Below are positions 3,044 to 36,027 of a DNA stretch of 64,000 nucleotides, one piece after another. The DNA lies in IMG/VR virus record IMGVR_UViG_3300050821_010639, positions 64,001 to 128,000 of that record; one strand, written 5' to 3'. Position 1 is the first letter of the stretch. Each line of letters opens with the position of its first letter. The position numbers and the translations under genes were made by a program. Origin of the DNA: a virus. Below the pieces are notes generated by a model. It was not told the origin of the DNA and made no database searches. It saw nothing but the letters and a program-made list of their open reading frames with translations.

Positions 3044-3247
3044 TGTGCTGCCTCTCGCTCGGTTGCCATACCCCCAACCTACCGCATGGCTTGACTCAAG
3101 ACAAGAGATCTGGCGCATTGGCCGTATGAGCGCACTGACCGCACAAGACATCGCCGACGGGCGCTGGCAGGTACCGCGCAGAACGGGCCAGGAAAGCCCT
3201 AGGGCCCGCACAGAGCGTCTGTGCGGGCCCTAGGCATGCGAGAGGAG

Positions 3248-3466
3248 CTAGCGCCCCCTGGTACGGCTCCTGGCCACGTACGCGCGCCCGTCACGCGCCT
3301 CGCGCGAGTTGGCCACAGCGCGCAGCGTGCGCGCCTCACTGGCGGGAATAGACAGCAGCGCGCTGCGGTCGGCGAGGCGCCGTACCTCTGGCGTGGGGAC
3401 GTCGCGCACGTCAGCGATGACGCGGCATGCCCGCGCGAGGCGCGCGCGGAACGTTCGGTCTTTCAT
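3248..3466 (-). CDS. Small basic hypothetical protein
   Basis: Leader CAGGTGAGGCACCATG; follows promoter copies at 3494/3517. Confidence 0.55.
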   Translation of the reverse strand: MKDRTFRARLARACRVIADVRDVPTPEVRRLADRSALLSIPASEARTLRAVANSREARDGRAYVARSRTRGR

Positions 3467-3582
3467 GGTGCCTCACCTGTATGAGTCGGGTTGCTTGACA
3501 CGAGTCTAGCGCATGGCTTGACCGCAGACAAGGCAAAAGCGCCCCCTGGCCGTACGTGGCCAGGGGGCGCTGTGGAGGGTCG

Positions 3583-3918
3583 CTAGCCGGCCAGCGCGGC
3601 GGCTACGGCCTTGCGGAAACGGTACGGAGTGAGCATGCGGTCCGCGTAGGCGCGCGCCGCGTCCTGCAGCGCCGGCGAGGCGCCCAGCAGTGCCCGCGCG
3701 TCGTCCGCCGCCGCGTGGTAGCCGTCGGAGTGCCCCGTGCGCTCAAGCTCGTCAGCCACGTGGGCTACCTCGATGGCGCGCGGCGGAAGCTTCTCCTGAG
3801 CGCACCATTCGTCGGCGTACAAGCCGAAGTCCCGGTCATGGGTGAGGCACACGCGGATAGCCGCGTCCCCCTCGACTTGCTCGTAAACGCATGACTGCTG
3901 TGCTGTGTCGGTTGCCAT
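3583..3918 (-). CDS. Hypothetical protein, probably leaderless
   Basis: ATG about 7 nt after the -10 (TACATT) of the 3939 promoter; terminator hairpin at about 3538-3571. Confidence 0.6.
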   Translation of the reverse strand: MATDTAQQSCVYEQVEGDAAIRVCLTHDRDFGLYADEWCAQEKLPPRAIEVAHVADELERTGHSDGYHAAADDARALLGASPALQDAARAYADRMLTPYRFRKAVAAALAG

Positions 3919-4004
3919 GCCCCCAATGTAGTGCACGGCTTGACTGGAGTCAAGACGCCGGCGCACCCCGGGAAGGCATCTCCCGGGGTGCGCTGGTGAG
4001 GGGC

Positions 4005-4421
4005 TTAGAACACGGCCAGCGCGTTCAGCACAGCCTCGTCAAGGCCGCGCTGGGTAGGCGCCCCGGTAGCGGCGGCGCGCACGGAGGGGAAACGGGCCAG
4101 CATCGCGCACGCCATCTCGCGGGCGCCGCCGTACTCGCCCGCGTCCCCGCCTACCCGGCTGATGGCCGTGCGCACGGCTGTTACGACGTCAGCCGCGCCA
4201 CTGGCGGGCTCGTCACCCGGCACCGCGTAAACGGCCAGGTCGATGTCCCGTTCGGCGATCGAGCCCAGAGGGTTGACCACGCCGCGCGCGATTTCGGTCG
4301 CGTGCCGCGGGCCCGTGATGCCCTGCACCGCACTGTCTAGGTAGAACGTCGGGACGGACACGCTCCCGTGCCAGTCTCCGTTGTGCGTGAGGATTTGCCC
4401 GGTTACCGCGTACATCGTCAT
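4005..4421 (-). CDS. Hypothetical protein
   Basis: GGGGCAGGCACC-ATG leader, promoter 4473, terminator hairpin at about 3963-3991. Confidence 0.65.
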   Translation of the reverse strand: MTMYAVTGQILTHNGDWHGSVSVPTFYLDSAVQGITGPRHATEIARGVVNPLGSIAERDIDLAVYAVPGDEPASGAADVVTAVRTAISRVGGDAGEYGGAREMACAMLARFPSVRAAATGAPTQRGLDEAVLNALAVF

Positions 4422-4499
4422 GGTGCCTGCCCCTGCTAGTCGGTTGCGCTTGCTCACGAGGATAGGTGAGAGCTTGACACGAGTCAAGCCATGCACGTG

Positions 4500-4593
4500 A
4501 GGCGCTGTAAGGCCCGTAGCGGCACGCTGGCGAGTTGGGTAGTCAGGGGCACGCGGCGAGGCGCTTAGGGGGCGCTACGGGCCTTACAGCGCC
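4500..4593. repeat. Long inverted repeat (22-bp arms)
   Basis: AGGCGCTGTAAGGCCCGTAGCG ... CGCTACGGGCCTTACAGCGCCT. Confidence 0.7.
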
Positions 4594-4744
4594 TCGCGCG
4601 GGCACTTGCGCCGGCTCTCCCAGTACGGAACTTGTCGGCACCCGGTATTACCCGCTTCCCGCATCACGCCTACGTGCGCGGACAGCGCAGCGCCCCCGGT
4701 AGGGCTTTGACCCCCGGGGGCGCTGTGGCAGCAGGCGCTAGCGC

Positions 4745-5002
4745 TTACGCGCGCCCCGCCCGTGGCCGGCCGTACCTCTCCGCCCACGCCTTTGCGCTGG
4801 CCAGCGTGCGGTAGTAAGGCGAGTGCTGGTCATACGGGTATCCGGCCACGGTCGCGCGCCACGTGTTCCCGTCTCCCGGGAAGTTGGTCACGGTGGCGCT
4901 GTGGTACTCACTCGCGCCGCGCCATTCCGTGTAGCGCTTCCCCTCAAAGTCGAAGGGCTTGCGCGCCCATGTCATTGCGTACGGGTCGGCTGCCTCGCTC
5001 AC
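4745..5002 (-). CDS. Hypothetical protein
   Basis: Globular-looking ORF directly downstream of 5005..5265. Confidence 0.6.
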   Translation of the reverse strand: MSEAADPYAMTWARKPFDFEGKRYTEWRGASEYHSATVTNFPGDGNTWRATVAGYPYDQHSPYYRTLASAKAWAERYGRPRAGRA

Positions 5003-5004
5003 GG

Positions 5005-5265
5005 CTAGCGCCCGTTCCTGGCCAGCGCGGCACGGTGCTGGACTGCCGCGCGCAAGCGGCTACGCGGTGAGCGGGTGCGGTGCGCGATGATGGTTCGCAC
5101 CATGCGCAGCTGGGTTAGCGCCTCGCCGGTAACCGGCCCGGGGACCTGCGCGCGGTAAGCCGGCTCGCACGCGCGCAGCTCTGCCGTTGTCATGGCGGAT
5201 GCCGCGCGGTAAGCCTCGCGCCTCGCGTGCGCTATGGCCCGGTCAATTAGCGGTGCCCTGGTCAT
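5005..5265 (-). CDS. Hypothetical protein
   Basis: Leader box at 5270, promoter at 5333. Confidence 0.6.
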   Translation of the reverse strand: MTRAPLIDRAIAHARREAYRAASAMTTAELRACEPAYRAQVPGPVTGEALTQLRMVRTIIAHRTRSPRSRLRAAVQHRAALARNGR

Positions 5266-5431
5266 GATGTGCCTGCCCTTGCTCTGGCCGCGCCGTGGCG
5301 GCGCGCGCTCTGCTTACGAGGATAGGTGAGCGCTTGTCTTGAGTCAAGACGGGATCTTAGGCGGGCACGACAAATCCCCGCCGTTCATCTTCCATCGATG
5401 AACGGCGGGGACTGTCACACCTGAGGCCAGG

Positions 5432-5779
5432 CTACCCGTGTACGGGGCAGCTCGTGCCCGCGCACGCCTCACGTGAGCACGCGCCGGGCATCTCCGCGCG
5501 GTACGCGGCGAGGCCGGCCGGCATGGTTTCCGGGTAGTGCTGCCAGCGCCAACGGCACTCCCCGCACGCGCCGCACGCGCCGCACGCGCCGCGCCACAAG
5601 TCGCAGTAAGTGAAGTTCCGGCAGAACGCGCACCAGCCGTAAGCCGGCGCGCGGTCGGGCTGGCCGGCGCCCCCGCTTGACTGGTACGCCTCGTTGTCCG
5701 CGTGACCGTGGTCAACGGCGTAGTCCCCGTAGGTGTCCGCCGGCGCGCTGCTGTCAAAGCCTGCACTGAAACTCGGCAT
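5432..5779 (-). CDS. Cys-rich hypothetical protein
   Basis: CAFC, CGACGACGEC motifs; leader box 5784, promoter 5831. Confidence 0.6.
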   Translation of the reverse strand: MPSFSAGFDSSAPADTYGDYAVDHGHADNEAYQSSGGAGQPDRAPAYGWCAFCRNFTYCDLWRGACGACGACGECRWRWQHYPETMPAGLAAYRAEMPGACSREACAGTSCPVHG

Positions 5780-5841
5780 GATGTGCCTGCCCTAGGTCGG
5801 TGGGTGTCTGCTTGCCACGATAGGTGAGAGCTTGACTTGAG

Positions 5842-6138
5842 TCAAGCGTTAGCGCTGCACTCACAGCCTGCGCTAGGCAGGGGCGGGATGGGGCCGACAT
5901 CACCGGGCCGGCGTATGGCGAACATCTCGACCATGGGCGAGGCGCTGTAGGGCACGTAGCGGAACACGCGCGCGAACGTGCCGGCCGGCTCGCACGTGGT
6001 CGAGATGTCACGCGCCGCGCGCTCTAGCCGGTCCGTGAGCGTGCCGTAACCCTCCCGCCCGCTAACCCACTGGCCCCATTTCCACTGGCCGTTTGGGCGG
6101 TAGACCTCTACCCGGTAGTTGCGCCCCATGTCGTTCAT
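5842..6138 (-). CDS. Hypothetical protein
   Basis: Both leader boxes and promoter 6188. Confidence 0.65.
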   Translation of the reverse strand: MNDMGRNYRVEVYRPNGQWKWGQWVSGREGYGTLTDRLERAARDISTTCEPAGTFARVFRYVPYSASPMVEMFAIRRPGDVGPIPPLPSAGCECSANA

Positions 6139-6256
6139 GACTGCCTGCCCTTGCTAGTCGGTTGCCTGCCACTACGATAGGTGAGAGCTTGACTTGAGTC
6201 AAGACACAAGCTAGCCCCGGTAGGCGACCCCTACCGGGGCTAGCTGTCGACCCGGC

Positions 6257-6478: not shown

Positions 6479-6515
6479 GACGTGCCTGCCCTAGTTCGGT
6501 GCGGATGGGTGGGGG

Positions 6516-6785: not shown

Positions 6786-6934
6786 TGGTTGCCTGCCCTT
6801 GCTAGTCGGTTGGCGTCTTGCCCTGCCCACCAGTATGCATGAACGCTTGACTTGAGTCAAGAGGATTCGGGAGACGGGAACACGACAGCGCCCCCGGGAA
6901 GCACCTTCCCGGGGGCGCTGCCAGCGCGGGGCGC

Positions 6935-8002
6935 CTAGGCGAGAGCGGCGGTAAGCCTCTCGCCCATGACCGACGCGAGAGCGTCAAGCGCCTGCGCGTC
7001 TTCCTTGGCCGTGACTCCGGTCACCATGTTGAGGTAGGTGCGCTCCATCCGGCCGCCGTCGGCACCTGAGACGTTGCGCTTCCACGTGTTGTGGGTGTTG
7101 CTCAGCTGAATGACGCCGAACGCGGTACCCGCCCACGGGCGCACCTTGGCATCGTGCCGCCACATCGCCTCGTACGTCTCGCGCAGCTTGACCGCGTTCG
7201 TGTACCTGGCCCCGCCAGTGCTCGACTTGGGGTCAGCGGCGGGAACCGGGGCCACCAGGGCCAGCCACGCGGCGAAGTCCGCCTCAGTGACGTCCACCGA
7301 CTGGAGAGCGGCGGCGGCCTGCGCGAACTCGTCTCCGGCCTGGTAGACCAGTCCCAGCGCGTCGCGCACCTCGGTCAGCTTGCCGATGCTGTTACGCGAG
7401 TGCTTGACCTTGAACTTGGTGCGCGCGGAGGAAAGCGCCGCAGCGAGCGTGTTATCACATACCGCTGCGGTCACCCCCGTGGCGTAGGTGCTGGAGAGCG
7501 TCCCGTCTACCGACGTCGCGGCCAGGATGTAGGGGGTGAACTCGAAACCGCCCACCTCAAGACCCGATCCGGTCAGCTGCGCTTGCATGAACGCGACGCC
7601 GCGGTTGCGCAGCAACCCGACGGACTTGGTGCCCAGTTCGCCGCGCGAGGTGTCGAGAATGGCGGCGATCTGGTCGGCCGTCCACTCCTTGTACCCGTGC
7701 ACCTGGTAACCCTGCTTGAAGACGCCGAGCACCGCGCCGTTGTCCGGGGTGACGATGACCTTGCGGGAAGGGTCCTTGATGACCTGGCGGTTACCGTCCG
7801 CGTCGGTGTACTGCGCGAACATCTCGGCTTCCGCGAACTCGACCGACAGCAGCCGCTCAACCTCCTCGGTCGGAACGGGCCCGTCGAAGTGCGAACCGTC
7901 GGTCATGTACTCGCCGCTTGCCGCCCACCAGGCCGGCCCGTCCGACCCCACGTAACCTACGCGGATGTTGGAGCGGAGCCATTCCATCGTTTCCTTGCTC
8001 AT
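6935..8002 (-). CDS. DUF932-family phage/plasmid protein
   Basis: PYILAATSVDGTLSS...VCDNTLAAAL...KVKHSRNS signature and WAGTAFGVIQ C-terminus; terminator at about 6886-6920. Confidence 0.75.
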   Translation of the reverse strand: MSKETMEWLRSNIRVGYVGSDGPAWWAASGEYMTDGSHFDGPVPTEEVERLLSVEFAEAEMFAQYTDADGNRQVIKDPSRKVIVTPDNGAVLGVFKQGYQVHGYKEWTADQIAAILDTSRGELGTKSVGLLRNRGVAFMQAQLTGSGLEVGGFEFTPYILAATSVDGTLSSTYATGVTAAVCDNTLAAALSSARTKFKVKHSRNSIGKLTEVRDALGLVYQAGDEFAQAAAALQSVDVTEADFAAWLALVAPVPAADPKSSTGGARYTNAVKLRETYEAMWRHDAKVRPWAGTAFGVIQLSNTHNTWKRNVSGADGGRMERTYLNMVTGVTAKEDAQALDALASVMGERLTAALA

Positions 8003-8110
8003 TGCGTGCCTGCCCTTTCACTGCCGGGGGCGTGTCCCCCTTGCTTGACTTCAGTTAACCAGACGTCGCCTGTACGTGTCAAGTCCCTCCCGACACGTAC
8101 CGCTCAGCTT

Positions 8111-9319
8111 CTACGCGGGCACCCGGACCTTGGCCGCGGGCACGATGGCATAGCCGCGCGTGGCCCCGTCCGAGCGCTTGAGCGCCGCTACCTCGTTCGG
8201 CATGCCCTTGGCGCGCTCCCAGTTAAGGACCGTGCCAGCGTCCCGCACAGCGGCGCTGCGCGCCTCGCTGCGCCTGGCGTAGGCCGCGCCCACCCATGTG
8301 CGCGTGTCCCTGGCCTCGCCCGGCTCACGCGTTACGCGCATCACGCGGAACGGGCCCCCCGCGCTGTCCTCCGCCTGCGCGGTCACGAGGCGCGCGCGCA
8401 CCGACCCGGCGGCCGGCCCGCCCGGCGCAGTCGCCTGCTGCGCGGCGCTCACCCGCTCGGCGCGCGCGTTCTCGGCGTTCACGAACACCGCGTGAGCCGA
8501 CGCGCCGGCCCCGGTAATGGTGTACTGCTGCGGTTCACCCTTGGCTATGTTGCCCTTGACCATCTTGATGACGCGCAACTCGGGGTCATCCTTGGTGCGC
8601 TCCACCATGAACGCGAGGCGCAGCGCGTCGACAACCGCCGGCGATCCGGAGACCTTCCCGTCCTTGGTCAGGTGGTGGATGACACCCAGCGCCACGTCCG
8701 CTTGCCGCGCGAACTGCTTAAGCGACCGCATCACCATGCGCGCGGACCGCACCGAGGTGATGTGGTCGTTTTCGCCTAGCAGGTCGGCCAGCGGGTCGAT
8801 GACCACCAGGGCGACCGCGGGCCCGCCAACTCGGTTGAGCTTGCCCACCTCCGTCAGCAGGCGCCCCATGTCCCCGGGCACCTCGAAGGGGGAACCGTCT
8901 TTCCACTCGGACAGGTCGTGCACCAAGCGGATAGCGCCGCTCTCTTCCGACAGCGAGGGGTCGAGGCCGAATTCCGCGACCGCGACCGCTATAGCCGCGC
9001 GCAGGCGCGGTGCCAGGTCCTCGAACGGGTCGTCTTCGGTGCCGGCGATGTAGACCACGCGCCCGGGGTCGCGCCGTACGGCCTGGTCCTCGTTGGGAAA
9101 CGGCAAGCCGAGCGCGACCCGCGCGATGACCGCACAGAACAGCATGCCCTTGCCTGCCCCGCCAACAGCCGCGAACAGCGCGGGGTTGCCAATGGGGATG
9201 TAGTCCGGCCACAGCCAGCGGCGCGGTATGTACGGGATATTGGAGTAGTCGACCGCAGCCAGGTCGTCAGCGTCGACCGGCCCGACGTCGCCCGCGGGCG
9301 CGTCGAAGATAAACGACAT
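8111..9319 (-). CDS. AAA_25 / RecA-fold (RepA-like) ATPase/helicase
   Basis: RWLWPDYIP, Walker A AVGGAGKG, Walker B LVVIDP, HHLTK motif. Confidence 0.8.
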   Translation of the reverse strand: MSFIFDAPAGDVGPVDADDLAAVDYSNIPYIPRRWLWPDYIPIGNPALFAAVGGAGKGMLFCAVIARVALGLPFPNEDQAVRRDPGRVVYIAGTEDDPFEDLAPRLRAAIAVAVAEFGLDPSLSEESGAIRLVHDLSEWKDGSPFEVPGDMGRLLTEVGKLNRVGGPAVALVVIDPLADLLGENDHITSVRSARMVMRSLKQFARQADVALGVIHHLTKDGKVSGSPAVVDALRLAFMVERTKDDPELRVIKMVKGNIAKGEPQQYTITGAGASAHAVFVNAENARAERVSAAQQATAPGGPAAGSVRARLVTAQAEDSAGGPFRVMRVTREPGEARDTRTWVGAAYARRSEARSAAVRDAGTVLNWERAKGMPNEVAALKRSDGATRGYAIVPAAKVRVPA

Positions 9320-9411
9320 GTGTGCCTCACCTGTATGAGCTGGGATGATGGTGCGAGGCTACACCCATGGCTTGACTTGAGTCAAGTGGATGCAGCCTCG
9401 CTGAAATGCTG

Positions 9412-9657: not shown

Positions 9658-9749
9658 CTGCGAGCCTGCCTCACCTGTACTCGTGGGGTTGATACCGCTA
9701 GGCTACATCCATGGCTTGACTTGAGTCAAGTGGATGTAGCCTAGCGAGG

Positions 9750-10989: not shown

Positions 10990-11264
10990 TGGGTGCCTGC
11001 CCTTGCTTGGTTGACTGCTGGTAAGTACAGCTTAGGGCATGTCTTGACTTGAGTCAAGTAGCGATTCTTCAATGATGCGCTGCCCTTCGGTCATCTCACC
11101 CGCGGGTGAGGGGGCATGGCGCTTATCCGGGCCGGGGCTGGCGTCGCAATACCACGGGCGCGGGTCATCGCGCTTGCGCGCCCTCCAGGTGCCCGCGCTG
11201 TTGCGCCGAACAGGCTTACCGCAGTAGAGGCAGTCAGCCGTGAGGCTGCTAACCGGCCGGGTCA

Positions 11265-12001: not shown

Positions 12002-12116
12002 TTTTCCCTTGCCCTTCGTTCGGTTGCCTGGTCTCAACATAGTGCATGGCTTGACTTGAGTCAAGACAACGGCCGGCCCCGCCCCGGCGATTACCACGGG
12101 GCGGGGCCGGCCGTGC

Positions 12117-12716: not shown

Positions 12717-12761
12717 GATGGTGTGCCTGCCCTTCAGTTAACGGTGCCTGGTGGTGCGGGG

Positions 12762-13307: not shown

Positions 13308-13442
13308 GGTGCCTGCCCTCTACTCGTTCGGATCGTGCTTACGATGGCCAGCATAGTGCGCACCTTGACTTGAGTCAAGACAGCAGTCAGCCCGGTAGCT
13401 GTCGTAGCTACCGGGCTGACTCAGGCTGTTGACGTGCCTGCC

Positions 13443-14548: not shown

Positions 14549-14658
14549 GACGTGCCTGCCCTTCGTTCGGTTGCCTGGTGCCAACAGTACCCTACGTACT
14601 TGACTCAAGTCAAGACATGAGTAAGGCGGTCAGCCGTTTCCAGCTGACCGCCTTGTCC

Positions 14659-14838
14659 CTACCGAACTCGCTTGCCCCGCAGGTCTGCCGCGTACGCGCG
14701 GCGGGTGCGCCGGCTGTAGCCGGTCTTGATGAGACCCCGCCGGCCGTGGTTCCAGCGGTGCGCCGTGTGCAGCCGGCTGAACGCGTCAACCTCGTCGGCT
14801 CCGCGGGTGGGGCGGGGGTGCATCTTCTCAACGTCCAT
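14659..14838 (-). CDS. 59-aa basic hypothetical protein (MDVEKMHPRP...)
   Basis: Leader box 14842, promoter 14888, terminator hairpin at about 14626-14651; below ORF-track cutoff. Confidence 0.55.
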   Translation of the reverse strand: MDVEKMHPRPTRGADEVDAFSRLHTAHRWNHGRRGLIKTGYSRRTRRAYAADLRGKRVR

Positions 14839-15109
14839 GGGTGCCTGCCCTTCGCTGTGGTGTTGTGCTTACCAGCATAGGTCAGGGCTTGACTTGAGTC
14901 AAGACAGCAGAGCACCCCGGCTGTCCTGGCTAAGGCTGCCGGGGTGCTCTGTAACATCTAGTAGTTTGCCGTCAATCCATAAGCACCACCTCTGTCCGCA
15001 GGGTCGTACCTGAGTTGGCACGAGTCAAGAGGGACCGCCTTCGACGCACACAGCCCGGCCATGTCTAGCTGAGCGAGTGCGCGCCGCGCTGCCGGGTCAT
15101 CAGCAGTGC

Positions 15110-16391: not shown

Positions 16392-16843
16392 CGTGTGCCT
16401 GCCCTTCGGTTGCCTGCTTACAGGTCCAGCTTAAGGCATCACTTGACTCAAGTCAAGTAGCCCTACGCTTGCCTGCCAGCTCTGCGCGCAACGAGTGATC
16501 ATGAGTGCAGCTCCGGGCAGTCGCCGACGTGCGGCCGGTAGCCGGCCCCATAGCTCTAGCGAGTCCTGCTCAGGAACCGGGTCAACGCAGATCGAGCGGA
16601 ATGAGTTCTCGGTAAAGATCAGCTTCTCCGCCCGCAGCAGCACCCACACCGGCCAGTGCGACCCGTAGCGCAGGTCGGTGTGCCTGTCGTGCTCGCGGTC
16701 ATCGAGCGAGAGCGGGCAGTACGCGAACCAGGACCAGGCGCCCGCCACGGTGCAGTGCGCCCGGTAGGTGCGCCGCAGCTCGGTACAGGGAGGCAGGTCC
16801 GCACCTGCCTCCCTCAGCCGCTTGAGCAGGCGCTCGATCTTGG

Positions 16844-17098: not shown

Positions 17099-17778
17099 GA
17101 TGTGCCCCTCTCGGTTGCCTGCTCCGAGTCTAGGGCATGGCTTGACTCAAGTCAAGAAGTCTGGTGATGTCCCCTGGTGTGCACGTCCACCGCGATGTCG
17201 CCCAGCACGTTGCCGGCGTGCCCGAGCAGCTGCAAGAGCACCGCCGCGAACACCGACACGCAGGGCCGGCAGACCCGCGGCATCCTCGGCTGGCCGTCAG
17301 GCGTCATCACCGGGACGTGCAGCGCGGGCGAGTCCTGGTCGCCGCACAGCGCGCACGCCAGCCCGGGAACCATCATGACCTCGGTCTTGCGGTCGGTCAC
17401 GGCCAGCCCTTCCACTCAGTGGCGATGCTGAGCCTGGCGGCGCCCCTCAGCAGGATGGCCGAGCGCTCCCGGCTGCGCGCGGGCAGGTCCACGTAAGCGA
17501 ACAGCCGAGCGCGGGCCGCCGCCACCAGGCGGACCAGGCCGAGCACGTGCGCCGCGTCCCGGCTGTCCTGCTCGGACATCACCCAGTCGCCCGCGCTGGT
17601 GCCTGACGCCTCGCGCAACAGGCGGGCGAACAGCACCCGGTCGTTGTCGCCCTGGCCGTCGCGCAGCTCTCTCAGCAGGCCCTCGCCGTCGGTACCGTCG
17701 TTCATTTTTCTTAACCCCCCACAGGTCAGGGCGGGTGCCGGCCGGCACCCGCCCTTTACTTCCTACGCCGTGCGGTGG

Positions 17779-18755: not shown

Positions 18756-18874
18756 CGGGTGCCTGCCCTTCGCTCGGTTGCTGATAGCTCCACTGTAGTG
18801 CATGGCTTGACTTGAGTCAAGAACGTAACGCAGCCCCGAACGGGTGACACGCCCGGGGGCCTCGCGCACTCTCG

Positions 18875-19570: not shown

Positions 19571-20050
19571 TCAGTCGGCGAGGCACACCGGCATCTGGGC
19601 GGGCTGGTTGCCCGGGATGGTCAGCGTGTAGCGGCGGGTGTCGCGGTCGTACCTCGCCGACACAGGGCCGTTGGTCGTCTCCGCAGTCGCCGACAGCGGC
19701 CAGGTGCCGAGCGCCGCGTGCAGCAGCGAGTCAACCAGGCTGGAGGCGATGTAGGCGGAGGTGAGGATGGTGACCGCCTTGTCCCGCGTGACGCTCTCGT
19801 AGGTGACCGGACCCGGGGGAACCTCGCGGTTCCAGCCGCCGATGCGCAGCAGCGCGGCCTCGATGTGCTTGCAGAGGGTCACCGCGATGCCACCGTCGGC
19901 CTCGACCAGCCGGCCACGCCGGTTGATGAAGTCCGCGCAGTCGCAGGACGGAAGGGTGACCGCGTGGGCCGCCGCGCCGTTGCTCTGGCTGCGAACCAGC
20001 GCGGTCGTGGGGTGGACGGTCATGTCGTACATGGCCTTGGCCTGAGCCAT
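19571..20050 (-). CDS. SWIM zinc-finger protein
   Basis: SCDCADF...LCKH; leader box 20054, promoter 20098. Confidence 0.7.
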   Translation of the reverse strand: MAQAKAMYDMTVHPTTALVRSQSNGAAAHAVTLPSCDCADFINRRGRLVEADGGIAVTLCKHIEAALLRIGGWNREVPPGPVTYESVTRDKAVTILTSAYIASSLVDSLLHAALGTWPLSATAETTNGPVSARYDRDTRRYTLTIPGNQPAQMPVCLAD

Positions 20051-20159
20051 TCGTGCCTGCCCTTCATCGGAGCTTGTGGTTCAAGGGTACCCGATAGCTT
20101 GACTTGAGTCAAGACATAAACGAGGCGCGCACCCGGGGAAGGTGCGCGCCTCGCGGGGC

Positions 20160-20348
20160 CTACTCAGCCGCAAGCAGCTCCGGCCGGAAGGCAGCGCGGA
20201 CCTTGGCGTCCAGCGCCTCCCACAGCTCAGGGGTGAGCATGAGGTCGGTCAGCCCCAGGTCCAGGCGCACCGCGCCCGAGCGGTCGCCCACGACGCCGAT
20301 CCGGCGCCCGTAGGTGTCGAAAACCTCTCCGCCCTTGGTGTCGTTCAT
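20160..20348 (-). CDS. Small hypothetical protein
   Basis: Leader box 20350, promoter 20402, terminator 20121-20153. Confidence 0.6.
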   Translation of the reverse strand: MNDTKGGEVFDTYGRRIGVVGDRSGAVRLDLGLTDLMLTPELWEALDAKVRAAFRPELLAAE

Positions 20349-20418
20349 GTGCCTGCCCTTCAGCCGGGGATTCTTGCCTACCCCTCAACTGTACTGCTCA
20401 GCTTGACTTGAGTCAAGT

Positions 20419-20661: not shown

Positions 20662-20817
20662 GGCGTGCCTGACCTTTGCTTGACTGCTGTTAAGCATCAG
20701 GCTAGGCCAGGCTCTTGACTCGTGTCAAGACATGACGAGAGGCCTTGCGGACGGGGGCACCGCAAGGCCTCTCGGGGAATTACGCGGGCGCCTGGGGCGG
20801 GCGCCGCGCCTCCAGTA

Positions 20818-21057: not shown

Positions 21058-22996
21058 GGCGCTCTCCCCTCTCGGGTTACCCCGGGGTAACCCTAACCGG
21101 TCCGCTTGACTTACGTAAAGCGAAACGGGCCAACATGATGGCGGAAAGTGGGGGAAACTGGGCACTTGCTGGTCCAGGCGTCATCGTCCCAGGTGAGCCG
21201 CGGGCACGAGCAGTCCTCTCCCGGGCGCATCGGGCAATAGCACCCGGTCCCCGGGTGCTCCTTCCAGCCGGGACGCCGGTCTGCCCTCGGCACCAGCGAC
21301 CGCAGCCGCTCGCCGTCGACCACCAGGCGCGCACCGCAGTAGCGGCAGGGCAGCAGCTCCGGGTCCGGCTCGCCCGCCATCGCCTCGCACGGGCTGAGTC
21401 CCGCGCTGTGCACCCAGTAGCCCCAGATCCCCTGCCAGAACATGTCACGGTGGTGAGCCAGGCAGCAGGCCAGCGTCCCGGCCCAGGGCCCGCGCGGGGT
21501 GTACGCCCGCGCGGCCTCAGCCTCGGCCTGGGATACCCGGTCGTACCCGGTCACCGGCGCGGCCACCAGAGCAGAACCAGCCCGATGACCGAGAGCGCCA
21601 GAGTAGCCGTGCCGGCGACCGCAGCCGGCTTGTACGGCGCCCACAGACCAGTCGTCAGCGCCAGCAGCCAGATGACGACCCCGAGCCAGTTGGTCCGGCT
21701 CACGGGTAACCGCACCTCCGGCCAGGTCGCGTAGCTCCGGCCGCGCACCGAGCCGTCCGGCCTGGTAGCCGCCGCGTTGGCGAACAGGTGCCCGTGCTCG
21801 CGCCACCAGGAGGTAAGCGCCGCGTACTCGGACGCGTCCCAGGCCAGCATCGCGGCGCGCGCGGCCAGGGCGTCCGCTGACGGCCCGCGCAGGCGGCCTA
21901 GCGCCTCCTTGCGCCTGCGCTGGTACTCCGCCTGCTGCGCCCGGCGGTAGCGCTCACGGACGACGGAGCGACGCTGAGGGTGGCAGTAGTCCGGCAACGG
22001 CGTGCCGACGGCCCGGACCAGTACCCGGCTCGCGTACCACTCCCTCGGCTTCCGCACCCAGGCAAATTTAGCGCTCAGGGCAGTACAGGGCTGCCCCTTG
22101 ACCGCCTTGCACTCCGGGCAGTCTTCCGTCTGCCCCTGCTCGGTGGTGATGGGGCCGCCGACGTCGTGCGCGTCAGAGTAGATCACCGGGCTCACCGCGT
22201 CTCCAGCCAGGTCGCCGGCCACCAGGACGCGCAGCCGTCGTCCAGCTCCACGAACACGCTCGCGCCGTCAAGGCTGATGAACCAGGGCACCAGGCCCGGC
22301 TGCGGTACCCACCGGGCGTAGCTCTCCGGCTCGCCAGCGGCCACGGCCCCGCGCTGGCCGCGCCGCCAGTAAACCCGCCGACCGAGCCATACCGGCGTGC
22401 CGGGCTGGAACCGCTGCTCAAGGGCCGGCAGCAGGTCACGGGTAAACGGGCCCTCCTCCCAGCCGCCCAGCTCAGCGACCGCCGCGGAGAGGTCCGCAGC
22501 CTCGGCCTGGTCGAAGCCGGACGACGCCACCTCGCGCCTCTGGTAGACCGTCACCACGGCCAGCGTGCCGGTCATGACTTGCCCGGCGTGGCCTGAACCA
22601 CCTGGTCAACGGTCACCGTGACCGCCTTGCTCCCGCGCAGCAGCCGTAGCTTGTTCGGCTTGCGCGGCACCCGGGGGTCAGGACTCTGCTCCACCGAGAT
22701 GGTGCGGATGACCTGCCACCTCCTGAGCTGGTAGATCACCTCATCGTTGACCGCGATGCGGCCGGGCGCCCCGCTCACGCGTACTCCTCAGTGCACCGGC
22801 CGGCCCGGTGCTGGTACCCGGCCCAGAACTCGCCGTCAATGAGCGCGGCAGTAGCCCAGGCCGGGGAGCCGGCAGGGATCTCGCCGTTGCAGTCGGTGCA
22901 ACGGTGCGCCTTACGCGTCGCCTGCACCTGACGGCGACTCAGGGCGACGAACGTGATTTCCGGCTCGGGGCGACAACAGGTGTCGTAACAGTGCAT

Positions 22997-23850: not shown

Positions 23851-23917
23851 GTGCCTGCCCTTCGGTTGGTTGCCTGGTTACAGGGTAGCCTAATGCTTGA
23901 CTTGAGTCAAGACACGC

Positions 23918-24465
23918 CAAAGCCCCGCGGGCAGGGCAGGCAACCGAGATCCGCGGGGCTTCAACGAGAGGGGGAGCCACCGTCTACACACGGCTCAGGA
24001 GAACCCTCGCTAAGCGACAGGCAGGCCAGCTGGCCTGCCTGTCACGCTCTTGAGTTGTACGCGGGTGCCGGGAGCGGACCAGCCCGTCGACTGGAACCTC
24101 CCGGCCCCCACTTCGCTCCGTGTGGGGTGCACCTAAAGCCGCAGGGAGCGCGTCCGCGACCTTCCACACTTGCTCCCGGGCCAGGGGTTTCACTGGTCCG
24201 TAGCGGTGTTGCAGGCCGCCAATGTCCGTACGCTGCCCCGAGGGGCCCGTACTAGCTTGGGCTTAGGTCAAGCTCACGCGTTCGCCAGGTACTCGACCTG
24301 GCCCGGGAAGTCTCTGTTGAGTTATATCCGGCTTACCCTGCCCTTGTGAGTGAGGCCCTGGGCGGGAGGGGCTGCGACTCGCGCTGTAGCCGGTGCTGCT
24401 ACCTTTCTGGGCGCTCCTGGCCGGTCCTCCTCTTGCCTGCTCGCTGACCTTCCGGCCTCGCTCAC
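23918..24465 (-). ncRNA. Putative large (~550 nt) structured non-coding RNA with an anti-leader terminal loop
   Basis: Own promoter TTGACA-18-TATCCT (24501-24472); helices 24454-65/24346-57, 24297-308/24174-85, 24312-20/23961-70, 24067-74/24098-105, 28-bp palindrome 24016-43, terminal hairpin 23920-61 followed by UUU. Confidence 0.7.
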
Positions 24466-25057
24466 ATTCAAAGGATAAGGGATCGACTTGACTCGTGTCA
24501 AGTGATCTCCGGTATTTCCTCTCCGCCAGGCTGACCAGGGCCGGAGCCGGGCCGGTAACGCGCTCCTGGGGCCCGCGCTCGCGCTGCCACGCCACGGCCA
24601 GGCCCAGCCGGGCCCGCCAAGCGAGCGCGGACACCGCGTTGGGGCTCATGCCGGAGGTTCGCGCCAGCTCGGCCGGCGTGCGCCCCTCCACCTCGGTCTG
24701 CCACAGCACCGCGCGCCAGCGGGGCGGCAGCGAGTCGAACGCGCGACGGGTCATCCGCTGCTCCTCGGCCGCGGTCGCCAGGTCCCCGGCGCCCGGCACG
24801 CGCACCATGCGAGGATCGAGCGGCACGGGGTCGATGCGCCTGCGCTCGGCCAGCCAGTCGCGTGCCAGGTTGCGCACCGCGGCCAGCAGGTAGGGCCGGA
24901 ACGCGCCGTCGGGGCCGTGGCCGGCCCGCTGCCTGGCCAGCACCCGGGTGAACGCCTCCGCCACGATGTCATCGGCCGCGTGCGCGGGCACCAGGGCCAG
25001 GGCCACGCGGCGCGCGGCGCTCCGGTGCTCGGCGTACAGGTCGGCGAACTCGGGCAT
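24263..25057 (-). CDS. ECF-type RNA polymerase sigma factor
   Basis: Region 2 (ADDIVAEAFTRVL, FRPYLLAAVRNLARD) and region 4 (LPPRWRAVLW...TPAELARTSGMSPNAVSALAWRAR); the tail beyond about 24500 runs into the ncRNA. Confidence 0.85.
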   Translation of the reverse strand: MPEFADLYAEHRSAARRVALALVPAHAADDIVAEAFTRVLARQRAGHGPDGAFRPYLLAAVRNLARDWLAERRRIDPVPLDPRMVRVPGAGDLATAAEEQRMTRRAFDSLPPRWRAVLWQTEVEGRTPAELARTSGMSPNAVSALAWRARLGLAVAWQRERGPQERVTGPAPALVSLAERKYRRSLDTSQVDPLSFECERGRKVSEQARGGPARSAQKGSSTGYSASRSPSRPGPHSQGQGKPDITQQRLPGPGRVPGERVSLT

Positions 25058-28153: not shown

Positions 28154-28959
28154 CGTGCCCGCCCCTCGTCGCCTGTGCCTGCTTGCGGGTCAGCTAGCCC
28201 CGCAGCCGCGGGGCTGCGCCCCCAGGCCTCCCGGGCCGCGTCGTTCCCGTAAATGACGTGAAACACCTGGTCCTTGCGCCGTCGCCGTTCGGTCTTGTCG
28301 GGAGCGGCACTGATGTACGCCGCTGCCTTGCGGTACGCGGCGTCACTCGCCTCGCTCATGAGCCCGCCCTTCTAGTTGCGCGCGCAGTCCGGCCAGCCGG
28401 ACGCGCCTACCCCTGTTACGTGCTGGCCCGCCGGGCAGAACACGGTGGGCGGGGTGAAGATCGCGGGCACGGCGTCGTGGTGCCTCAGGTGCCCGGCCAC
28501 GGTAGCGGCGATCATGAAAAAGGCGACCCCCGCGACCACGGTCACCAGGGCAATCACCACAGCCGACCTCATGACTCGCCTTCAATCACCAGGTCGTTGT
28601 CGGTCTGGTCGGCGCCGAAGCGCGGGATGCCCGGCTCAGCGCCGGACCCGATGATGACGCCGTTGGCCGCGCGCCGCTCGCCAGGCCGCAGTTCGATGTT
28701 CAGGGTCTTGTCTCCCGGTGCCTGTGTCACGGCCACAGCTTACGCAGTGTCTTGACTAGAGTCAAGTAATCAGACATTTTCGGCGGGCCGCCGACCGTCC
28801 GCAGCCAGAGGAAGACGCCAGCCGCGCCGTTCGCGAACCCGAAGGCCACAATGCCGAACGGGAGCCACCAGCCCTCCAGGCCGGTCCAGAGCATGAGCCA
28901 GAAGCCGACGCTCATGCTGAAAAAGCACATGATGACCCAGGGGTGGCGCTGCACGGGGT

Positions 28960-30859: not shown

Positions 30860-31985
30860 CGGGTGCCTGCCCTCTGCTCGGAAGTGCTTACGACACCAGG
30901 CTACCGGATGACTTGACTTGAGTCAAGAGAGTGAGGATATTCCGCTCACGGGCGGCACATGCCCGCGTAGTCGCAGGGCTCGCCCTCGAAGCAGCCGCCA
31001 GGACCCGGGCACCTGCCCTCGTTGGCCGAGTAGCCCGGCGGGGTGACCGGCACCCACGGGTCTAGCCTGGCGTCGGCGCGGGCGCACCCGCCGCGCTCGA
31101 TGTACTGCCGCCAGCCCTCCTCGCTGCCGTGGCAGAGCATGCTCGCGGTGACCTTGACCATTTCGAGCACGGCCAGGGCAAAGGTGTCAGCTGCCTGCTC
31201 CCTCGGCAAGCCGATGTGCCCGATGCCCTCGACCCGGACGTACAGGACGGGAGTGAACTCAGCCATCGTCAGCAGTGCGGGCAGTCGTTGGCGTCACCGG
31301 AAACCGGAAGGCTGGCTACCGGGCGCTCGCGCTGCTGCCAGGCCGGGTAGCCCTCCAGGGGCTCGCCCGCCTCGAACCGCTCGGCGTAGAGCTTGGCTGA
31401 CTCGGCGAGCGCCGCCAGCTCGGGCTTCCCGCCAGGGCGGCCGGGGCCGCGGCCGAGCGGAAAGGCGATGGCGCTCTCCGCTGCCTCGCGAGCGATCACA
31501 GCCGTCAGGTTCACGGCAGCGGCACTGATCGAGAAGCGGCACAGCCGGACCTCCCGCTCTCCGGTGAGGACCAGGTAACCATGCCTGCTCCCGTAGGCGA
31601 ACGCGCAAGTCTCGCCGTGTATCCACTCCATCAGGTCCCCCCCAGTCCGAGCATTTCCGGCCGATGCCCCAGGGCAAGCCACGTCAGTCCTCCCTGGCGT
31701 ACTCGGCCACCCGGCCAGCAGGTGACCCGAGCCAGGGCTGCGCCTGGGGCGGGGCCGGGCGCTCCCGGCCGCCGGTGAGCCAGCCGTGCCATAGCAGGGT
31801 GCCGTCGTCCTCGAAAACCACGGCGTAGTCGTCCGTGGAGATGTCGCTCCGGTCGGTGTCGGTGTAGTCGGTGATGACGCCGGCGGTGTCCCCGCCGGCG
31901 TCCAGGGCTGCGCGGATGGCCGGCTCCTGGTACTCCTCGTCAGCGTCGATCCGCCCTTCGCCGACCTTGAAAACCTTGATCTTCA

Positions 31986-32765: not shown

Positions 32766-32955
32766 GCGCCCGCCCTTCTCTCGGTGCCTGTGGTCCCATC
32801 GTAGGCCATGGCTTGACTCTGGTCAAGCAAAGAGCGGCCCCCGCACCAGGGGTGGTGGGCGGGGGCCGCTCGCTCAGGGGTGCCGGGTCAGGAGTACCTG
32901 CCCTTCGGTTGATTTCCTGGCTACAGGTTAGGTTACGGCTTGACTTGAGTCAAGA

Positions 32956-33954
32956 CTAGAAGGGCGGTATGTCGCTCTCGGGGCCCGGGGACGACTCAGG
33001 CACGGTACCCGCCGTACGCCGCTTGGGGCGGAGCTGGTGGATGTCAGGGCCGCGCTCGGGGCAGCCGCACGCGCGGTCCTTGCACTCCGGGCAGTCGCCA
33101 ACCCAGCACGAGAGGCACGTGGGCTTCTGCCCGCCGCGCCCCGGGCCCGCCGACGGCTTCGGCGCGGCGGGCGCGCGCTGCGCACGGGCCTTGGCCTTCT
33201 GGTAGCCGGACTTAGGGCGGCGGCCGAGCGGGGACGGCCGCCCGGCGAGCTGGCGGCCATCCCCGCCGAACCGCTTGCGCGAGACAGGCCAGAACAGCGC
33301 GCAGCCGTGGCCGGTGAACTCGTCTTCGAGAATGTGCAGCGCCATGCCTGCCGCCACCAGCCACCACAGGTCGGGGCGGGCGTAGACGACGGCCAGGGCG
33401 GCGATGCCGCACCCGGTGAGCGCCCGGCGCAGGCTCCCGTGATGGCGGTTCCGGCCGTGCCCGCCGTGAGTGAGGAAGCCAGTCGCCTTCAGCCCGGCCA
33501 CCACGCAGACCGCGATGAACAGGGCGAGGCCGCCCAGCGCCCAGCGGTTCGGCCACCAGTCGGCGCAGCTGGCCGTGACCAGGGCCATGAGCCCGATGCC
33601 GAACAGGGAGTGGAACCCCTGCCGGTGCCCGCCGAACAGCACCGCGACCAGGTGACTGGCACCGTGGCTCAGCGCGCCCGCCGAGTAGGCGAACGTCGCC
33701 TTGGGGTGGTCCGCGTCGGGCAGCAGGGCGAAGCCGGCGACCAGGGCGCCGTACAGCAGGTCGTGGCCGATGTTCCCGGCGACGGCGATGCCGTGCGCGT
33801 GCGGGGTGCTGGTCAGCAGGCCGAGGCCGGCCCCCAGCAGCAGCCCCGTAGCTGCGTGGGTGGTGCCCTCCATGTCGCCCTCGTGCTCCCCAGAGCGGTC
33901 TTTCGCCCTGACTGTGTAAGCGGTCCGGTAGCCCGGTGCTGTCGCGGTTGCCAT
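32956..33954 (-). CDS. Membrane-bound metal-dependent hydrolase (YdjM/DUF457-like)
   Basis: TH...G, LPDADH, GHRQGFHS, HILED motifs plus TM helices; alternative start 33873. Confidence 0.75.
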   Translation of the reverse strand: MATATAPGYRTAYTVRAKDRSGEHEGDMEGTTHAATGLLLGAGLGLLTSTPHAHGIAVAGNIGHDLLYGALVAGFALLPDADHPKATFAYSAGALSHGASHLVAVLFGGHRQGFHSLFGIGLMALVTASCADWWPNRWALGGLALFIAVCVVAGLKATGFLTHGGHGRNRHHGSLRRALTGCGIAALAVVYARPDLWWLVAAGMALHILEDEFTGHGCALFWPVSRKRFGGDGRQLAGRPSPLGRRPKSGYQKAKARAQRAPAAPKPSAGPGRGGQKPTCLSCWVGDCPECKDRACGCPERGPDIHQLRPKRRTAGTVPESSPGPESDIPPF

Positions 33955-35670
33955 AGCCCAAGTCTAACCTATGTCTTGTCTTGAGTAAAGAGAAAATATC
34001 TACCGGGGACGGTGGCGCGAGCCGCGCTGCGGGCGCTCGAAGTCCTGCCAGCGGGCCGCGTAGCCCTCGCGGCGGGCGGGCGCCACCGGGGCAGGCGGCA
34101 GCACCACCCGCGCCGGCCCGGCCTGTCCCCGTGCGTAAGCCCGGTAAGCGGCCCGGCCCGCGGGGCTGAGCCGCCAGCGGACGTAACGAAGGGTCTTCAT
34201 CAGTGCCTCCCCTGTGTCGTGGTGAGTAGTGCAGGTAGAACCTGAACAGCAGCCCGGTATGCAGGGCCAGGGCGACGGCCCCGGTCCCGTAGCCGAGCGC
34301 GGTCACCCAGTGCCGGCCCGCCAGGCCGAAAACGCAAGTGGCCGCCAGCGCCGCCGCTGCCATGGAGAGCAGGACGACGCCGGCGGCACGCAGCGCCTGC
34401 GCCCGGTCAGCCGGGCTGGGCACTGCCCAGCAGCTCGCGCAGGACTTCGGTGAAGGCGATGGCGCGGAACCTCTCGCGCTCCGCGCGGCAGCCCGCGTCC
34501 ACGGCCCCGAGCGGGAGCGCCTTGGTGACCAGGGCCTCCGCGCCCTTGACCGCGGTCGTCATGTCTTCGCTAGTAGGCGGCACGGTTCAGAACCTCCGGC
34601 TGATCCGGGTGCCGAACGGCCCCGGGATGGACGCCCACACGGACAGGCCGTGACGGCGGCGCTTGCGGTAGTGGTGGCCGTGGTACAGCGCGTAAAGCAC
34701 CACCACGATGACGACGATGGCAGCTGCCACGCCTAGCTCCTTACCCGGGCGCGGCTGCGCCCGCCGGTAGCCGCCCGGTCGCGCCGCACCCGGGCCAGGG
34801 TGGCGAGCCGCAAGGCCCGGTTCCTGGCCTGGCACAGCGCCGGGTCGGTGTTCCACGCGTCGATGCCGACGCGGTGGGTGGTGTCGTAAATCCAGTCCTG
34901 GACGGTGCCCAGCCAGCGCTCCGCGCTCTCGGCGCGGTCAGCCTCGCTCATGACAGGAGCCGCCTTTCGAAGTCGGCCATGTCCGTGTCGTGGATCATGG
35001 ACTCGTCGCGCGGCAGCGGCTCGCCGTCAGGGCCGAGCCGCCAGTGGTGCACGGTCACGTCAAGCCGCCGGCCGGCCGGGTCGCGGCCGGCACGCGGCGC
35101 CGGGTCCTCCCGGCCGTCCTCGCGGCCCAGCTGGCCGGCGCACTCGCCGCAAACCGGCCACCGGCCGAGCAGCAGCCGGTCAGCCGGCCGGCCGCAGGCC
35201 TCGATGCACGGCTCGCGCGGCTGCTGGGCCGGCCGGGCCGCGCGGTAACGGACAGCCGGCTGAGCGGCCGGCTCGCGGTAACGGACGGGCCTGGCCAGCC
35301 GGCCGCCGGACAGTCGCGCGGCCCCGGCCGCCAGCAGGCACAGGCCGGCCAGCGACACCAGGGCGAGCACGCCGATGACGACGATCTCGTGCAGCCCGCT
35401 GCGGTGCGGGTACAGGACCGCGCCCAGCACCAGGGCGACGGCCAGGATGGCCCGCTTCACCGCGCGGCCCTCGTCCTGGCGTGCTCGCGCCGGCGTGCCA
35501 GCCGCCGGTCCAGGTCGGTGAGCCCGACCTCGATGACGGTGGCCTGGTGACGCTCCAGCAGCTCAGCCAGGCTGGCGCGGTTGCGCTCCTCCAGCTTCAG
35601 GTCGGCCGCGGCAGGCGGCCCCAGCTTCTCCGGCATTACATCAGCTCCTCCTCAGTTGCTTAACCCGAGT

Positions 35671-36027
35671 CTAGCCAGTGGCTTGACTGCGGTCAAGAGA
35701 CCGGGAGAGCCTGCCCGCCGGCTTGTCGAATGAGGCCACCCGCTTGCGCAGCGTCTCGGTCGTGCCGAGCGTGTTGTGCTCTGGCTGGTAGAAGTCGATC
35801 AGGGTCAGCTGCCGGATGCACGCCTGCGGTTCGTGGACTGCCGGGATGAGGTACACCTGCCGCGGGTCGTACTGCTCGCGGTAGGTGTAGCTGTGGTCGC
35901 GCAGCCTGCTCAGCAGGTGGTCGGAGAGCCCGACGTAGAAAACGTGGCCGTCGGCGCGGTCGCTCAGCGCGTAGACCCACCACCCGGACAGGTCAGGGAG
36001 CATCTTCGCGCCGTAGACCTCAAGCAT
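35671..36027 (-). CDS. GIY-YIG nuclease domain protein
   Basis: WVYAL...FYVGLS..L.SRLRDH; start uncertain. Confidence 0.65.
   Translation of the reverse strand: MLEVYGAKMLPDLSGWWVYALSDRADGHVFYVGLSDHLLSRLRDHSYTYREQYDPRQVYLIPAVHEPQACIRQLTLIDFYQPEHNTLGTTETLRKRVASFDKPAGRLSRSLDRSQATG

Follow-up and report, generated by a model that had tools for sequence, protein, structure and literature searches.

The conserved inverted repeats of phiC31 and the asymmetric stoperators of L5 are multi-copy operators of phage master repressors. Repeats serving a related purpose in SPbeta, the SPBREs, are bound by the MrpR repressor (PMC10516654). Short dyads have also been described in Cluster O mycobacteriophages, which are non-temperate and carry more than 30 17-bp palindromes of the form TGTTCGG-N3-CCGAACA, with invariant 7-bp arms and predicted binding of a dimeric protein (PMC4351075), and in Microbacterium Cluster EG phages, which carry 18-bp repeats of the form GATCAACC-NN-GGTTGATC (PMC7302621). 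Promoter-early stem-loop (PeSL) cassettes have been reported from T4-type phages (Arbiol et al. 2010, PMC2839356; Comeau et al. 2014, PMC4122927). Here, we describe a further repeat, the palindrome CTTGAC-N4-GTCAAG, which recurs through an array of small genes in bases 64,001-128,000 (hereafter the window, 64,000 nucleotides in all) of the 152,046-bp IMG/VR record IMGVR_UViG_3300050821_010639, an uncultured phage genome rated 100% complete by CheckV. On the strength of sequence comparisons, we put at roughly 0.6 the probability that each palindrome is both the upstream half of a promoter for the host primary sigma factor (sigma-A/HrdB type) and a predicted operator for a dimeric protein.

The window has a G+C content of about 70%, and codon-position G+C together with open reading frame (ORF) calls places nearly all genes on the minus strand, so that the whole window is read on that strand. 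In this direction, the structural genes (Mu-type portal, capsid and a 2,899-amino acid tape measure) are followed by an arm of about 36 kb with about 70 small ORFs, from 36 kb down to about 0.4 kb of the window, then by a replication and recombination arm encoding DnaB, an SNF2 helicase, RecA, a clamp and clamp loader and a TraG-like ATPase, and lastly by 35 tRNA genes. The closest cultured phage by portal protein is Microbacterium phage Magritte, with 53% amino acid identity in the portal and a one-directional layout in common; the host is therefore probably an actinobacterium. Five related uncultured IMG/VR records of 124-151 kb, with related sample numbers, share a syntenic core at 73-80% nucleotide identity, and the six-genome comparisons given below cover the present phage (G000) and these five.

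Exact palindromes occur 25 times in the window, from 3939 to 35697, against 0.00 expected from 100 shuffles, and 43 copies are found when up to two mismatches are allowed (1.5 expected). Six copies carry one mismatch (3090, 3494, 3517, 5333, 20679 and 21105) and a few two-mismatch copies are still in promoter register (33975 and 43153), in line with the about 25 intact and 10 degenerate copies counted in a preliminary description of this stretch. Exact and one-mismatch copies of the window are all confined to 3,090-35,697; the structural and tail arm, at 36-64 kb of the window, contains neither, as had been noted for the tail module, whereas the statement that nearly all copies are intergenic holds for most and not for about four (35682, 28751, 24487 and 16442), which overlap the last codons of a called upstream ORF. 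The motif scan suggested at that stage was extended to the full genome and gave 30 exact copies, 25 of them within a 33-kb arm and five beyond the window, located before the tRNA array, a 746-amino acid gene and three replication-arm operons. Genome positions 100-152 kb contain a single one-mismatch copy, which lacks a -10, and the 50-kb structural arm has no exact copy.

Each of the five relatives carries 13-27 exact copies, again clustered in one arm, and in two IMG/VR scans multi-copy clusters were seen, among the matches listed, in the same five records only. Scanning 185,579 prokaryote genomes for the 16-mer gave, among the matches listed, single scattered ones in unrelated taxa, with no host and no prophage. 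When 20 kb of the array were compared by megablast with 50,697 phage records, no match was returned, and nothing was found in an Rfam search of the window. In Magritte, TTGAC-N4-GTCAA is absent altogether, and the 88-kb non-structural arm has only two sense-strand TTGAC/TAnnnT sites and no recurring palindrome. A different 10-mer is repeated there, and this arm (OR553905, 45-133 kb; L285/L286) contains GTTAGCGCGT 14 times and CCCCACGAAGG nine times, possibly its own promoter and leader tags.

The minus-strand consensus reads C-TTGACT-C-N-AGTCAAG, i.e. 7-bp arms around a 2-bp centre, followed by 8 or 9 bases, TAnnnT and a G-rich stretch. The -35 is TTGACT in 80% and TTGACN in all of the exact copies, and the spacer from TTGACT to the -10 is 17 bp in 120 cases and 18 bp in 47. 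In 24 of the 25 exact window copies TAnnnT lies 17 or 18 bp past TTGAC, the exception being 6846 (CATACT); the earlier proposal that the palindrome supplies a minus-strand -35 with a correctly spaced TANNNT is thereby borne out, for the minus strand only. Across the six genomes, a -10 is in register on the sense strand for 129 of 136 exact copies and on the antisense strand for 3 of 136; on this count, the second arm was rejected as an antisense promoter. An independent sigma-70 scan called 16 window copies, with 1.3 and 0.6 expected in its two halves. The same promoter type also heads the 35-tRNA array and the replication-arm operons. Together, the modules are predicted to be early or middle promoters of the host sigma-A type, and, as they match the actinobacterial primary-sigma consensus with optimal spacing, they should fire unaided once the DNA enters the cell.

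If the -10 is placed at -12 to -7, the dyad extends from -36 to -21 and has its centre at about -28.5. RNA polymerase makes no base-specific contacts in the spacer region from -26 to -21. About 83% of sense-strand TTGAC-N18/19-TAnnnT sites in the six genomes carry GTCAA at +9, and the arms are 4 bases apart in every one of the 136 exact copies, never 0-3 or 5-8. At 185 register-true sites, identity is 97.7% in the left arm and 95.2% in the right, so that the non-promoter half, the conservation of which had been named beforehand as a test, is indeed kept. The variable positions are 49% identical in 31 orthologous promoter pairs (36% in random pairs), with the arms intact. The dyad centre differs by genome (TCAA, TCTA, TCCA, CAGA or ACGA), which indicates that the conserved feature is an inverted and not a direct repeat. 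Degenerate copies (56 register-true) are mostly altered in one arm only and show no compensatory change, which argues for sequence-specific recognition of double-stranded DNA rather than for a hairpin. Given this conservation of the non-promoter arm, a dimeric regulator of one large early regulon is the best reading.

It is proposed that bases 2-7 (TTGACT) would act as the -35 which, together with a 17-18-bp spacer, a TAnnnT -10 and a G-rich discriminator, would be read by the host primary sigma, and that about 35 such promoters would serve the early small-gene arm, the tRNA array and the replication-arm operons. One dimeric DNA-binding protein on the 16-bp dyad near -28.5 would occlude the -35, and the whole regulon could thus be shut off or timed at once. 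Since sigma region 4 would have to compete with a symmetric protein bound at -36 to -21, simultaneous repression or timing is the simplest function that we infer, and a centre at -28.5 is best read as the place of a repressor, not of a CRP/FNR activator. Bound protein might also block read-through from the upstream unit, as a roadblock where a hairpin is absent. The structural arm, without palindromic promoters, would probably be read by the phage's own sigma factors; because the late arm lacks the motif and two phage sigma-70-family proteins are encoded downstream of palindromic promoters, a cascade from host sigma to phage sigma is likely. Secondarily, the repeated modules may act as occasional recombination seams, as in T4 PeSLs. 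The preliminary description had envisaged an early or host-takeover regulon under one dimeric regulator; the dimeric regulator survives as the best reading, and the regulon is not purely early, as it includes the tRNA array and replication operons.

Several observations weigh against an operator of this kind. No candidate regulator with the CTTGAC palindrome as its own operator was found among those examined (RHH, GntR+UTRA and zinc-finger); the GntR/TraR-like and RHH proteins, both clade-conserved dimeric regulators, each have a different conserved repeat before their own gene, and the zinc-finger gene (43197-43424, +) beside a degenerate site is found in this genome only. Nine conserved array ORFs gave no PHROG match, and conserved array proteins are without a Pfam match; ORFs 4005-4421, 17152-17705 and 19571-20050 are examples of conserved genes without an assigned function. 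The dyad centre is strand-biased, with T at position 7 in 80% and C at position 8 in 72%, which a purely symmetric operator does not need and which may have a promoter origin. Also to be counted here is the demand for a repressor silencing all early and middle promoters in an integrase-less phage, which can be called plausible.

The candidate binders were set aside one after another on their own evidence. The RHH protein was rejected because the repeats in its own upstream region are GCTATC/GATAGC; directly upstream of its gene, at 700-790 (-), the window carries a cluster of these repeats and a long inverted repeat (CCCCTAGGTGATATC ... GATATCACCTAGGGG), probably the protein's own operators. 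The GntR/TraR-like protein, the closest solved relative of which is the Streptomyces plasmid repressor TraR, has its own upstream dyad, ACTGTAC-N8-GTACAG, kept in six of six genomes, and was not retained because this is not the CTTGAC palindrome. This element resembles the GGTAC-containing TraR repeats of pSVH1 (PMC4447253). A TraG/TrwB-like ATPase gene lies behind a palindromic promoter at G000:57734-59500 and, together with the GntR+UTRA regulator, recalls a kil-kor pair. The zinc-finger protein was rejected as it is absent from the five relatives. Weak Lsr2 and AsnC-type helix-turn-helix (HTH) matches are present in the structural arm, and it is possible that the binder is a host protein.

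With regard to sigma factors, the open frame of the array sigma gene runs on through the 24487 palindrome to 24263, and this protein, as a single-protein query, reached only three of the five related records. A second sigma-70-family protein (r2 + r4) is encoded at G000:51335-52368 (-); both sigmas are conserved across the clade and lie downstream of palindromic promoters. Inspection by eye of 21 structural-arm intergenic regions for a shared late-promoter motif gave nothing convincing. The phage also encodes ribosomal protein L7/L12 (G000:52642-53025, +, outside the window; PF00542, E=2.6e-25), the sole plus-strand gene of the replication arm.

Other explanations of the palindrome have to be set against these data. 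It could act as a nucleic-acid hairpin, either as RNA in read-through transcripts (a processing site or terminator helper) or as cruciform DNA, and a 6-7-bp stem is possible and lies directly past large terminator hairpins in about half of the units; however, the arms are invariant in 136 exact copies from six genomes, the 56 degenerate copies mostly differ in one arm with no compensatory changes, the stem is weak beside the adjoining 12-19-bp GC hairpins, and the palindrome lies outside transcripts begun at its promoter, making this the least probable of the alternatives. The FNR box is TTGAT-N4-ATCAA, and the wider consensus TTGA-N6-TCAA. TTGAC-N4-GTCAA is one base per half-site off the former and falls within the latter, with a rigid gap of 4, and the CRP/FNR match made in the preliminary description leads to the reading of a FixK-like (TTGA-N6-TCAA) site at which a host or phage activator recruits RNA polymerase to early promoters. 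The 5-N4-5 dyad geometry noted there stands, but the assignment does not: the centre is inside the core promoter at about -28.5 instead of at -41.5 (class II) or at -61.5 and beyond (class I), a consensus or near-consensus -35 with a 17-bp spacer is already present, so that no activator is needed, an HTH_Crp_2 (PF13545) profile search of the phage gave no match at E<=1, and the 6-N4-6 geometry is common to LexA-type boxes and many dimeric HTH sites. We therefore regard a CRP/FNR-type site as very unlikely. Reading of the promoters by a phage-encoded sigma rather than by host sigma-A, with the extended conserved sequence as the specificity of that sigma, is also quite unlikely. At least two sigma-70-family proteins are encoded and are conserved across the clade, but the motif is the actinobacterial primary-sigma consensus, and another factor must read these promoters first, as both sigma genes are downstream of them; moreover, sigma binds as a monomer, leaving the dyad symmetry unexplained, and the motif is absent from the late arm, the expected target of a phage sigma.

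Gene turnover in the array raises a further possibility, namely that there is no dedicated binder and that the palindrome rides in a mobile PeSL-like promoter/terminator cassette, homogenised by recombination, the main role of which is as a gene-shuffling seam. The array is plastic: of its 36 kb, only 2.7-16 kb can be aligned with any one relative (8-45% of the 33-kb arm that holds 25 of the 30 exact copies), whereas the core is 73-80% identical, and about 45% of array ORFs have no homologue in the five relatives, the shared genes being largely colinear. Breakpoints are enriched at the module, which is present at 72 of 165 synteny-breaking junctions and at 5 of 25 kept junctions (odds ratio 3.1, p=0.03, pooled and not independent); 9 of 84 homology blocks start no more than 5 nt from the palindrome's first base, where 1% is expected (about 10-fold), and the block end falls 0-35 nt inside the following module in 6 of 84 cases, with 3% expected, some block-edge enrichment being expected from alignment extension alone since the motif itself is conserved. 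Local near-duplicate modules (9371/9715 and 4473/5333/5831/6188) and the PeSL precedent (PMC2839356, PMC4122927) point the same way. However, about 80-90% of breakpoints lie away from the module, and the clearest indel, the one clean case aligned, breaks at the leader box and before the terminator and not at the palindrome; here the unit at 32830-32954 is matched by an orthologous unit in relative G001 (117609-117954), in which the same leader and terminator enclose an ORF of about 75 codons with a GTG start. Identity at variable positions is 36-37% within genomes and 35-36% between them, with 49% in orthologous pairs; modules within a genome are thus no more alike than those of different genomes, orthologues are more alike, and concerted evolution of the modules was rejected, yet the arms are invariant. 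Furthermore, recombination requires homology, not dyad symmetry or a rigid 4-bp gap. A seam as the main role is therefore unlikely, and the earlier idea that the palindromes serve as recombination points for gene gain and loss is upheld, on comparison of the related genomes, only in that the array is a hotspot of gene turnover with block starts enriched at the palindrome, most breakpoints being elsewhere.

The predicted promoter and operator are part of a larger unit. Perfect GC hairpins, 12-19 bp in length and with energies of -22 to -46 kcal/mol, lie 3-7 nt upstream of 11-12 of the 25 exact window copies. All nine terminator hairpins listed in the preliminary description were recovered beside their palindromes (3939, 6188, 6846, 12050, 13364, 14888, 20098, 20714 and 32812, that at 6846 being weaker), and others adjoin 14599, 18806 and 23896; only three of these hairpins appear in a strict terminator scan, because their T-tails are short. 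The view of the array as some 30 self-contained cassettes is apt for some units but not in general, as about 70 ORFs are distributed over about 33 modules, with 1 to about 10 ORFs per module and a hairpin terminator in fewer than half. In many units, a leader of about 30-45 nt contains CAACCGA and then AGGGCAGGCAC, 2-7 nt before the start codon and at the ribosome-binding position. Of the sequence GGGCAGGCA there are 26 sense-strand and 3 antisense-strand copies, with 22 copies 2-7 nt before a start codon and a few preceding internal genes without a promoter, and the leader box is the commonest 8-mer in the leaders of all six genomes. As a highly conserved 10-13-mer at the ribosome-binding site (RBS) of many genes, the box corresponds to a start-associated sequence (SAS). 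The modules and the main neighbouring features are listed in Table 1.

Table 1. Promoter modules and associated features in the window. Module rows are in window coordinates; the -10 is the in-register TAnnnT unless noted, and a number in brackets after it is the spacer length in bp. Hairpin energies are in kcal/mol.
Feature	Position	Strand	Palindrome	-10 (spacer)	Upstream hairpin	Leader box	Start	Remarks
RHH (CopG/Arc-type) protein	389..712	-						GCTATC/GATAGC repeats in own upstream region
Promoter module	3076..3105	-	1 mismatch (CTTGTCTTGAGTCAAG)	TAGGTT (17)
Two overlapping palindromes	3494..3532	-	1 mismatch each	TAGACT (3517-3532)	-34.9		3466 (first ORF)	3494-3509 without -10
Promoter module	3925..3954	-	exact	TACATT	-34.1
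Promoter module	4459..4488	-	exact	TATCCT		GGGCAGGCA	4421
Promoter module	5319..5348	-	1 mismatch, right arm	TATCCT		yes	5265
Promoter module	5817..5846	-	exact	TATCGT		yes	5779
Promoter module	6174..6203	-	exact	TATCGT	-36.6	yes	6138
Promoter module	6832..6861	-	exact	CATACT		yes	6785 (GTG)	sole exact copy without TAnnnT
Promoter module	9356..9386	-	exact	TAGCCT (18)				heads AAA_25 (8111-9319) and DUF932 (6935-8002) genes
Promoter module	9700..9730	-	exact	TAGCCT (18)				near-duplicate of 9371 module
Promoter module	11029..11058	-	exact	TAAGCT		yes	10989
Promoter module	12036..12065	-	exact	TATGTT	-46.0
Promoter module	13350..13379	-	exact	TATGCT	-34.3	yes	13307
Promoter module	14584..14614	-	exact	TACTGT (18)	-30.1	yes	14548
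Promoter module	14874..14903	-	exact	TATGCT	-34.3			single 59-amino acid ORF (14659-14838)
Promoter module	16428..16457	-	exact	TAAGCT		yes	16391
Promoter module	17127..17156	-	exact	TAGACT
Promoter module	18792..18821	-	exact	TACAGT	-22.4	yes	18755
Promoter module	20084..20113	-	exact	TACCCT	-31.9	yes	20050	159-amino acid ORF kept in 5/5 relatives
Promoter module	20388..20417	-	exact	TACAGT				single 62-amino acid ORF (20160-20348)
Double site	20679..20729	-	exact (20714-20729), then 1 mismatch (20679-20694)	TAGCCT (18), exact copy	-32.3, exact copy			20679-20694 without -10
Promoter module	21090..21120	-	1 mismatch, left arm (CTTTAC)	TAGGGT (18)
Promoter module	23882..23911	-	exact	TACCCT		yes	23850	adjoining upstream hairpin belongs to the 3' end of the candidate ncRNA
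Candidate non-coding RNA (ncRNA), about 560 nt	23917..24465	-						from 24487 palindromic promoter; 3' terminator hairpin with 20-nt loop; beside phage sigma gene
Promoter module	24472..24502	-	exact (TTGACA)	TATCCT (18)				followed by about 560 nt without credible ORF
Phage sigma factor (Sigma70_r2 + r4_2)	24510..25057	-						most conserved array gene; preceded by hairpin, not palindromic promoter
Promoter module	28737..28766	-	exact	TAAGCT				heads run of about 10 ORFs ending before sigma-factor gene
Promoter module	30898..30927	-	exact	TAGCCT		yes	30859
Promoter module	32798..32827	-	exact	TACGAT	-36.5		32765
'Empty cassette'	32830..32954	-	exact (32939-32954)	TAACCT		yes		runs directly into terminator hairpin; no ORF
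Degenerate module	33961..33990	-	2 mismatches	TAGACT			33954 (ATG)	YdjM-like gene; ATG only 6 nt past -10, so mRNA may be leaderless
First module of array	35668..35697	-	exact	TAGACT				overlaps last codons of GIY-YIG ORF
GntR + UTRA (TraR/KorA-like) regulator	41222..41959	+						antisense to main transcription; in 6/6 genomes; upstream dyad ACTGTAC-N8-GTACAG
Outlying degenerate module	43139..43168	-	right arm lost	TAAGCT				divergent region beside zinc-finger gene (43197-43424, +)

The leader box may have a partner within the array. Within the 20-nt terminator loop at the 3' end of the candidate ncRNA lies TCGGTTGCCTGCCC, which is complementary to the leader boxes GGCAACCGA and AGGGCAGGCA. 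The same loop, on stems of different sequence, is present at the same place in relatives G001 and G004, and in G003 a loop variant (CCT for CCC) matches the G003-enriched leader variant AGGCAGGCA. The retention of the loop on differing stems and the matched variant in G003 suggest that the candidate ncRNA acts as an antisense RNA on the cassette leaders. We would tentatively entertain, as a doubtful extension, a two-level gating in which the palindromic operator (bound by a dimeric protein and shutting off transcription) and the leader/RBS box (paired by the 20-nt loop of the ~560-nt RNA) might together silence more than 20 unrelated, exchangeable cassettes. If so, an ORF dropped into an 'empty' slot, such as that at 32830-32954, would inherit the full temporal programme. 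SAS and extended SAS (ESAS) elements of Cluster K mycobacteriophages and Cluster EF Microbacterium phages (PMC3203893, PMC7302621) resemble the present AGGGCAGGCAC box, which stands at the RBS position of more than 20 genes here. The box is far better conserved than an ordinary Shine-Dalgarno sequence, with a second, weaker CAACCGA box upstream in SAS/ESAS-like fashion, whereas it differs from SAS/ESAS in sequence, in its coupling to a palindromic promoter and in having a candidate antisense partner RNA.

In its overall organisation, the array had been likened to an integron without an integrase in view. The latter point is correct, since neither tyrosine (PF00589) nor serine (PF00239) recombinases gave a match in the whole genome, which is rated 100% complete. 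Integron cassettes, however, are promoterless, attC-ended and expressed from one Pc, and the present units differ on each count: there is no IntI-type recombinase, a separate promoter precedes every unit, and units carry the repeat, a perfect 16-bp dyad and not of attC type, at their 5' ends. The array is not an integron. Its architecture and behaviour are closest to those of the T4-type PeSLs, with which it shares many copies of a composite of a strong early promoter, here predicted to be read by host sigma, and a stem-loop terminator, concentrated in a hypervariable region of small, variable and non-essential ORFs and enriched at the edges of homology blocks. In contrast to T4 PeSLs, the present -35 forms part of a perfect 16-bp palindrome with rigid spacing, the host is probably a high-GC actinobacterium, the hairpin occurs in only about half of the units, and most breakpoints are off the module. 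PeSL-like cassette architecture would thus not be limited to T4-type phages.

For the palindrome itself, the nearest parallels are with actinophages and with temperate phages. Like the present phage, those of Clusters O and EG are integrase-less actinophages with 10 to more than 30 short dyads, in which invariant 7-8-bp arms surround a variable 2-3-bp centre and the repeats are kept across the cluster despite divergence of the flanks; Cluster O sites, however, are mostly off promoters, without orientation bias and not at indels, whereas 95% of the present copies are in a fixed -10 register on one strand. In phiC31, L5 and SPbeta, one protein acts on tens of near-identical intergenic sites to control many units or block read-through, as proposed here, but these are temperate phages, in which the immunity repressor occupies the sites, while the present genome has no integrase and no candidate with the repeat as its own operator. 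Repeated invariant dyads in integrase-less actinophages and multi-copy master-repressor operators in temperate phages were thus already known, and the clade of 124-152-kb high-GC phages had not been described before. The array would offer a testable high-GC actinophage case in which a large lytic phage brings dozens of small, fast-evolving genes under uniform expression through one promoter, an embedded operator and a leader, and the module could serve actinobacterial genetics as a portable promoter/RBS element, probably strong and switchable. What is new relative to these systems is that the half-site itself forms the -35 consensus, with register and orientation fixed in about 95% of copies, and is joined to an SAS-like leader, which extends the unexplained palindromes of Clusters O and EG to a case with an explicit link to transcription initiation.

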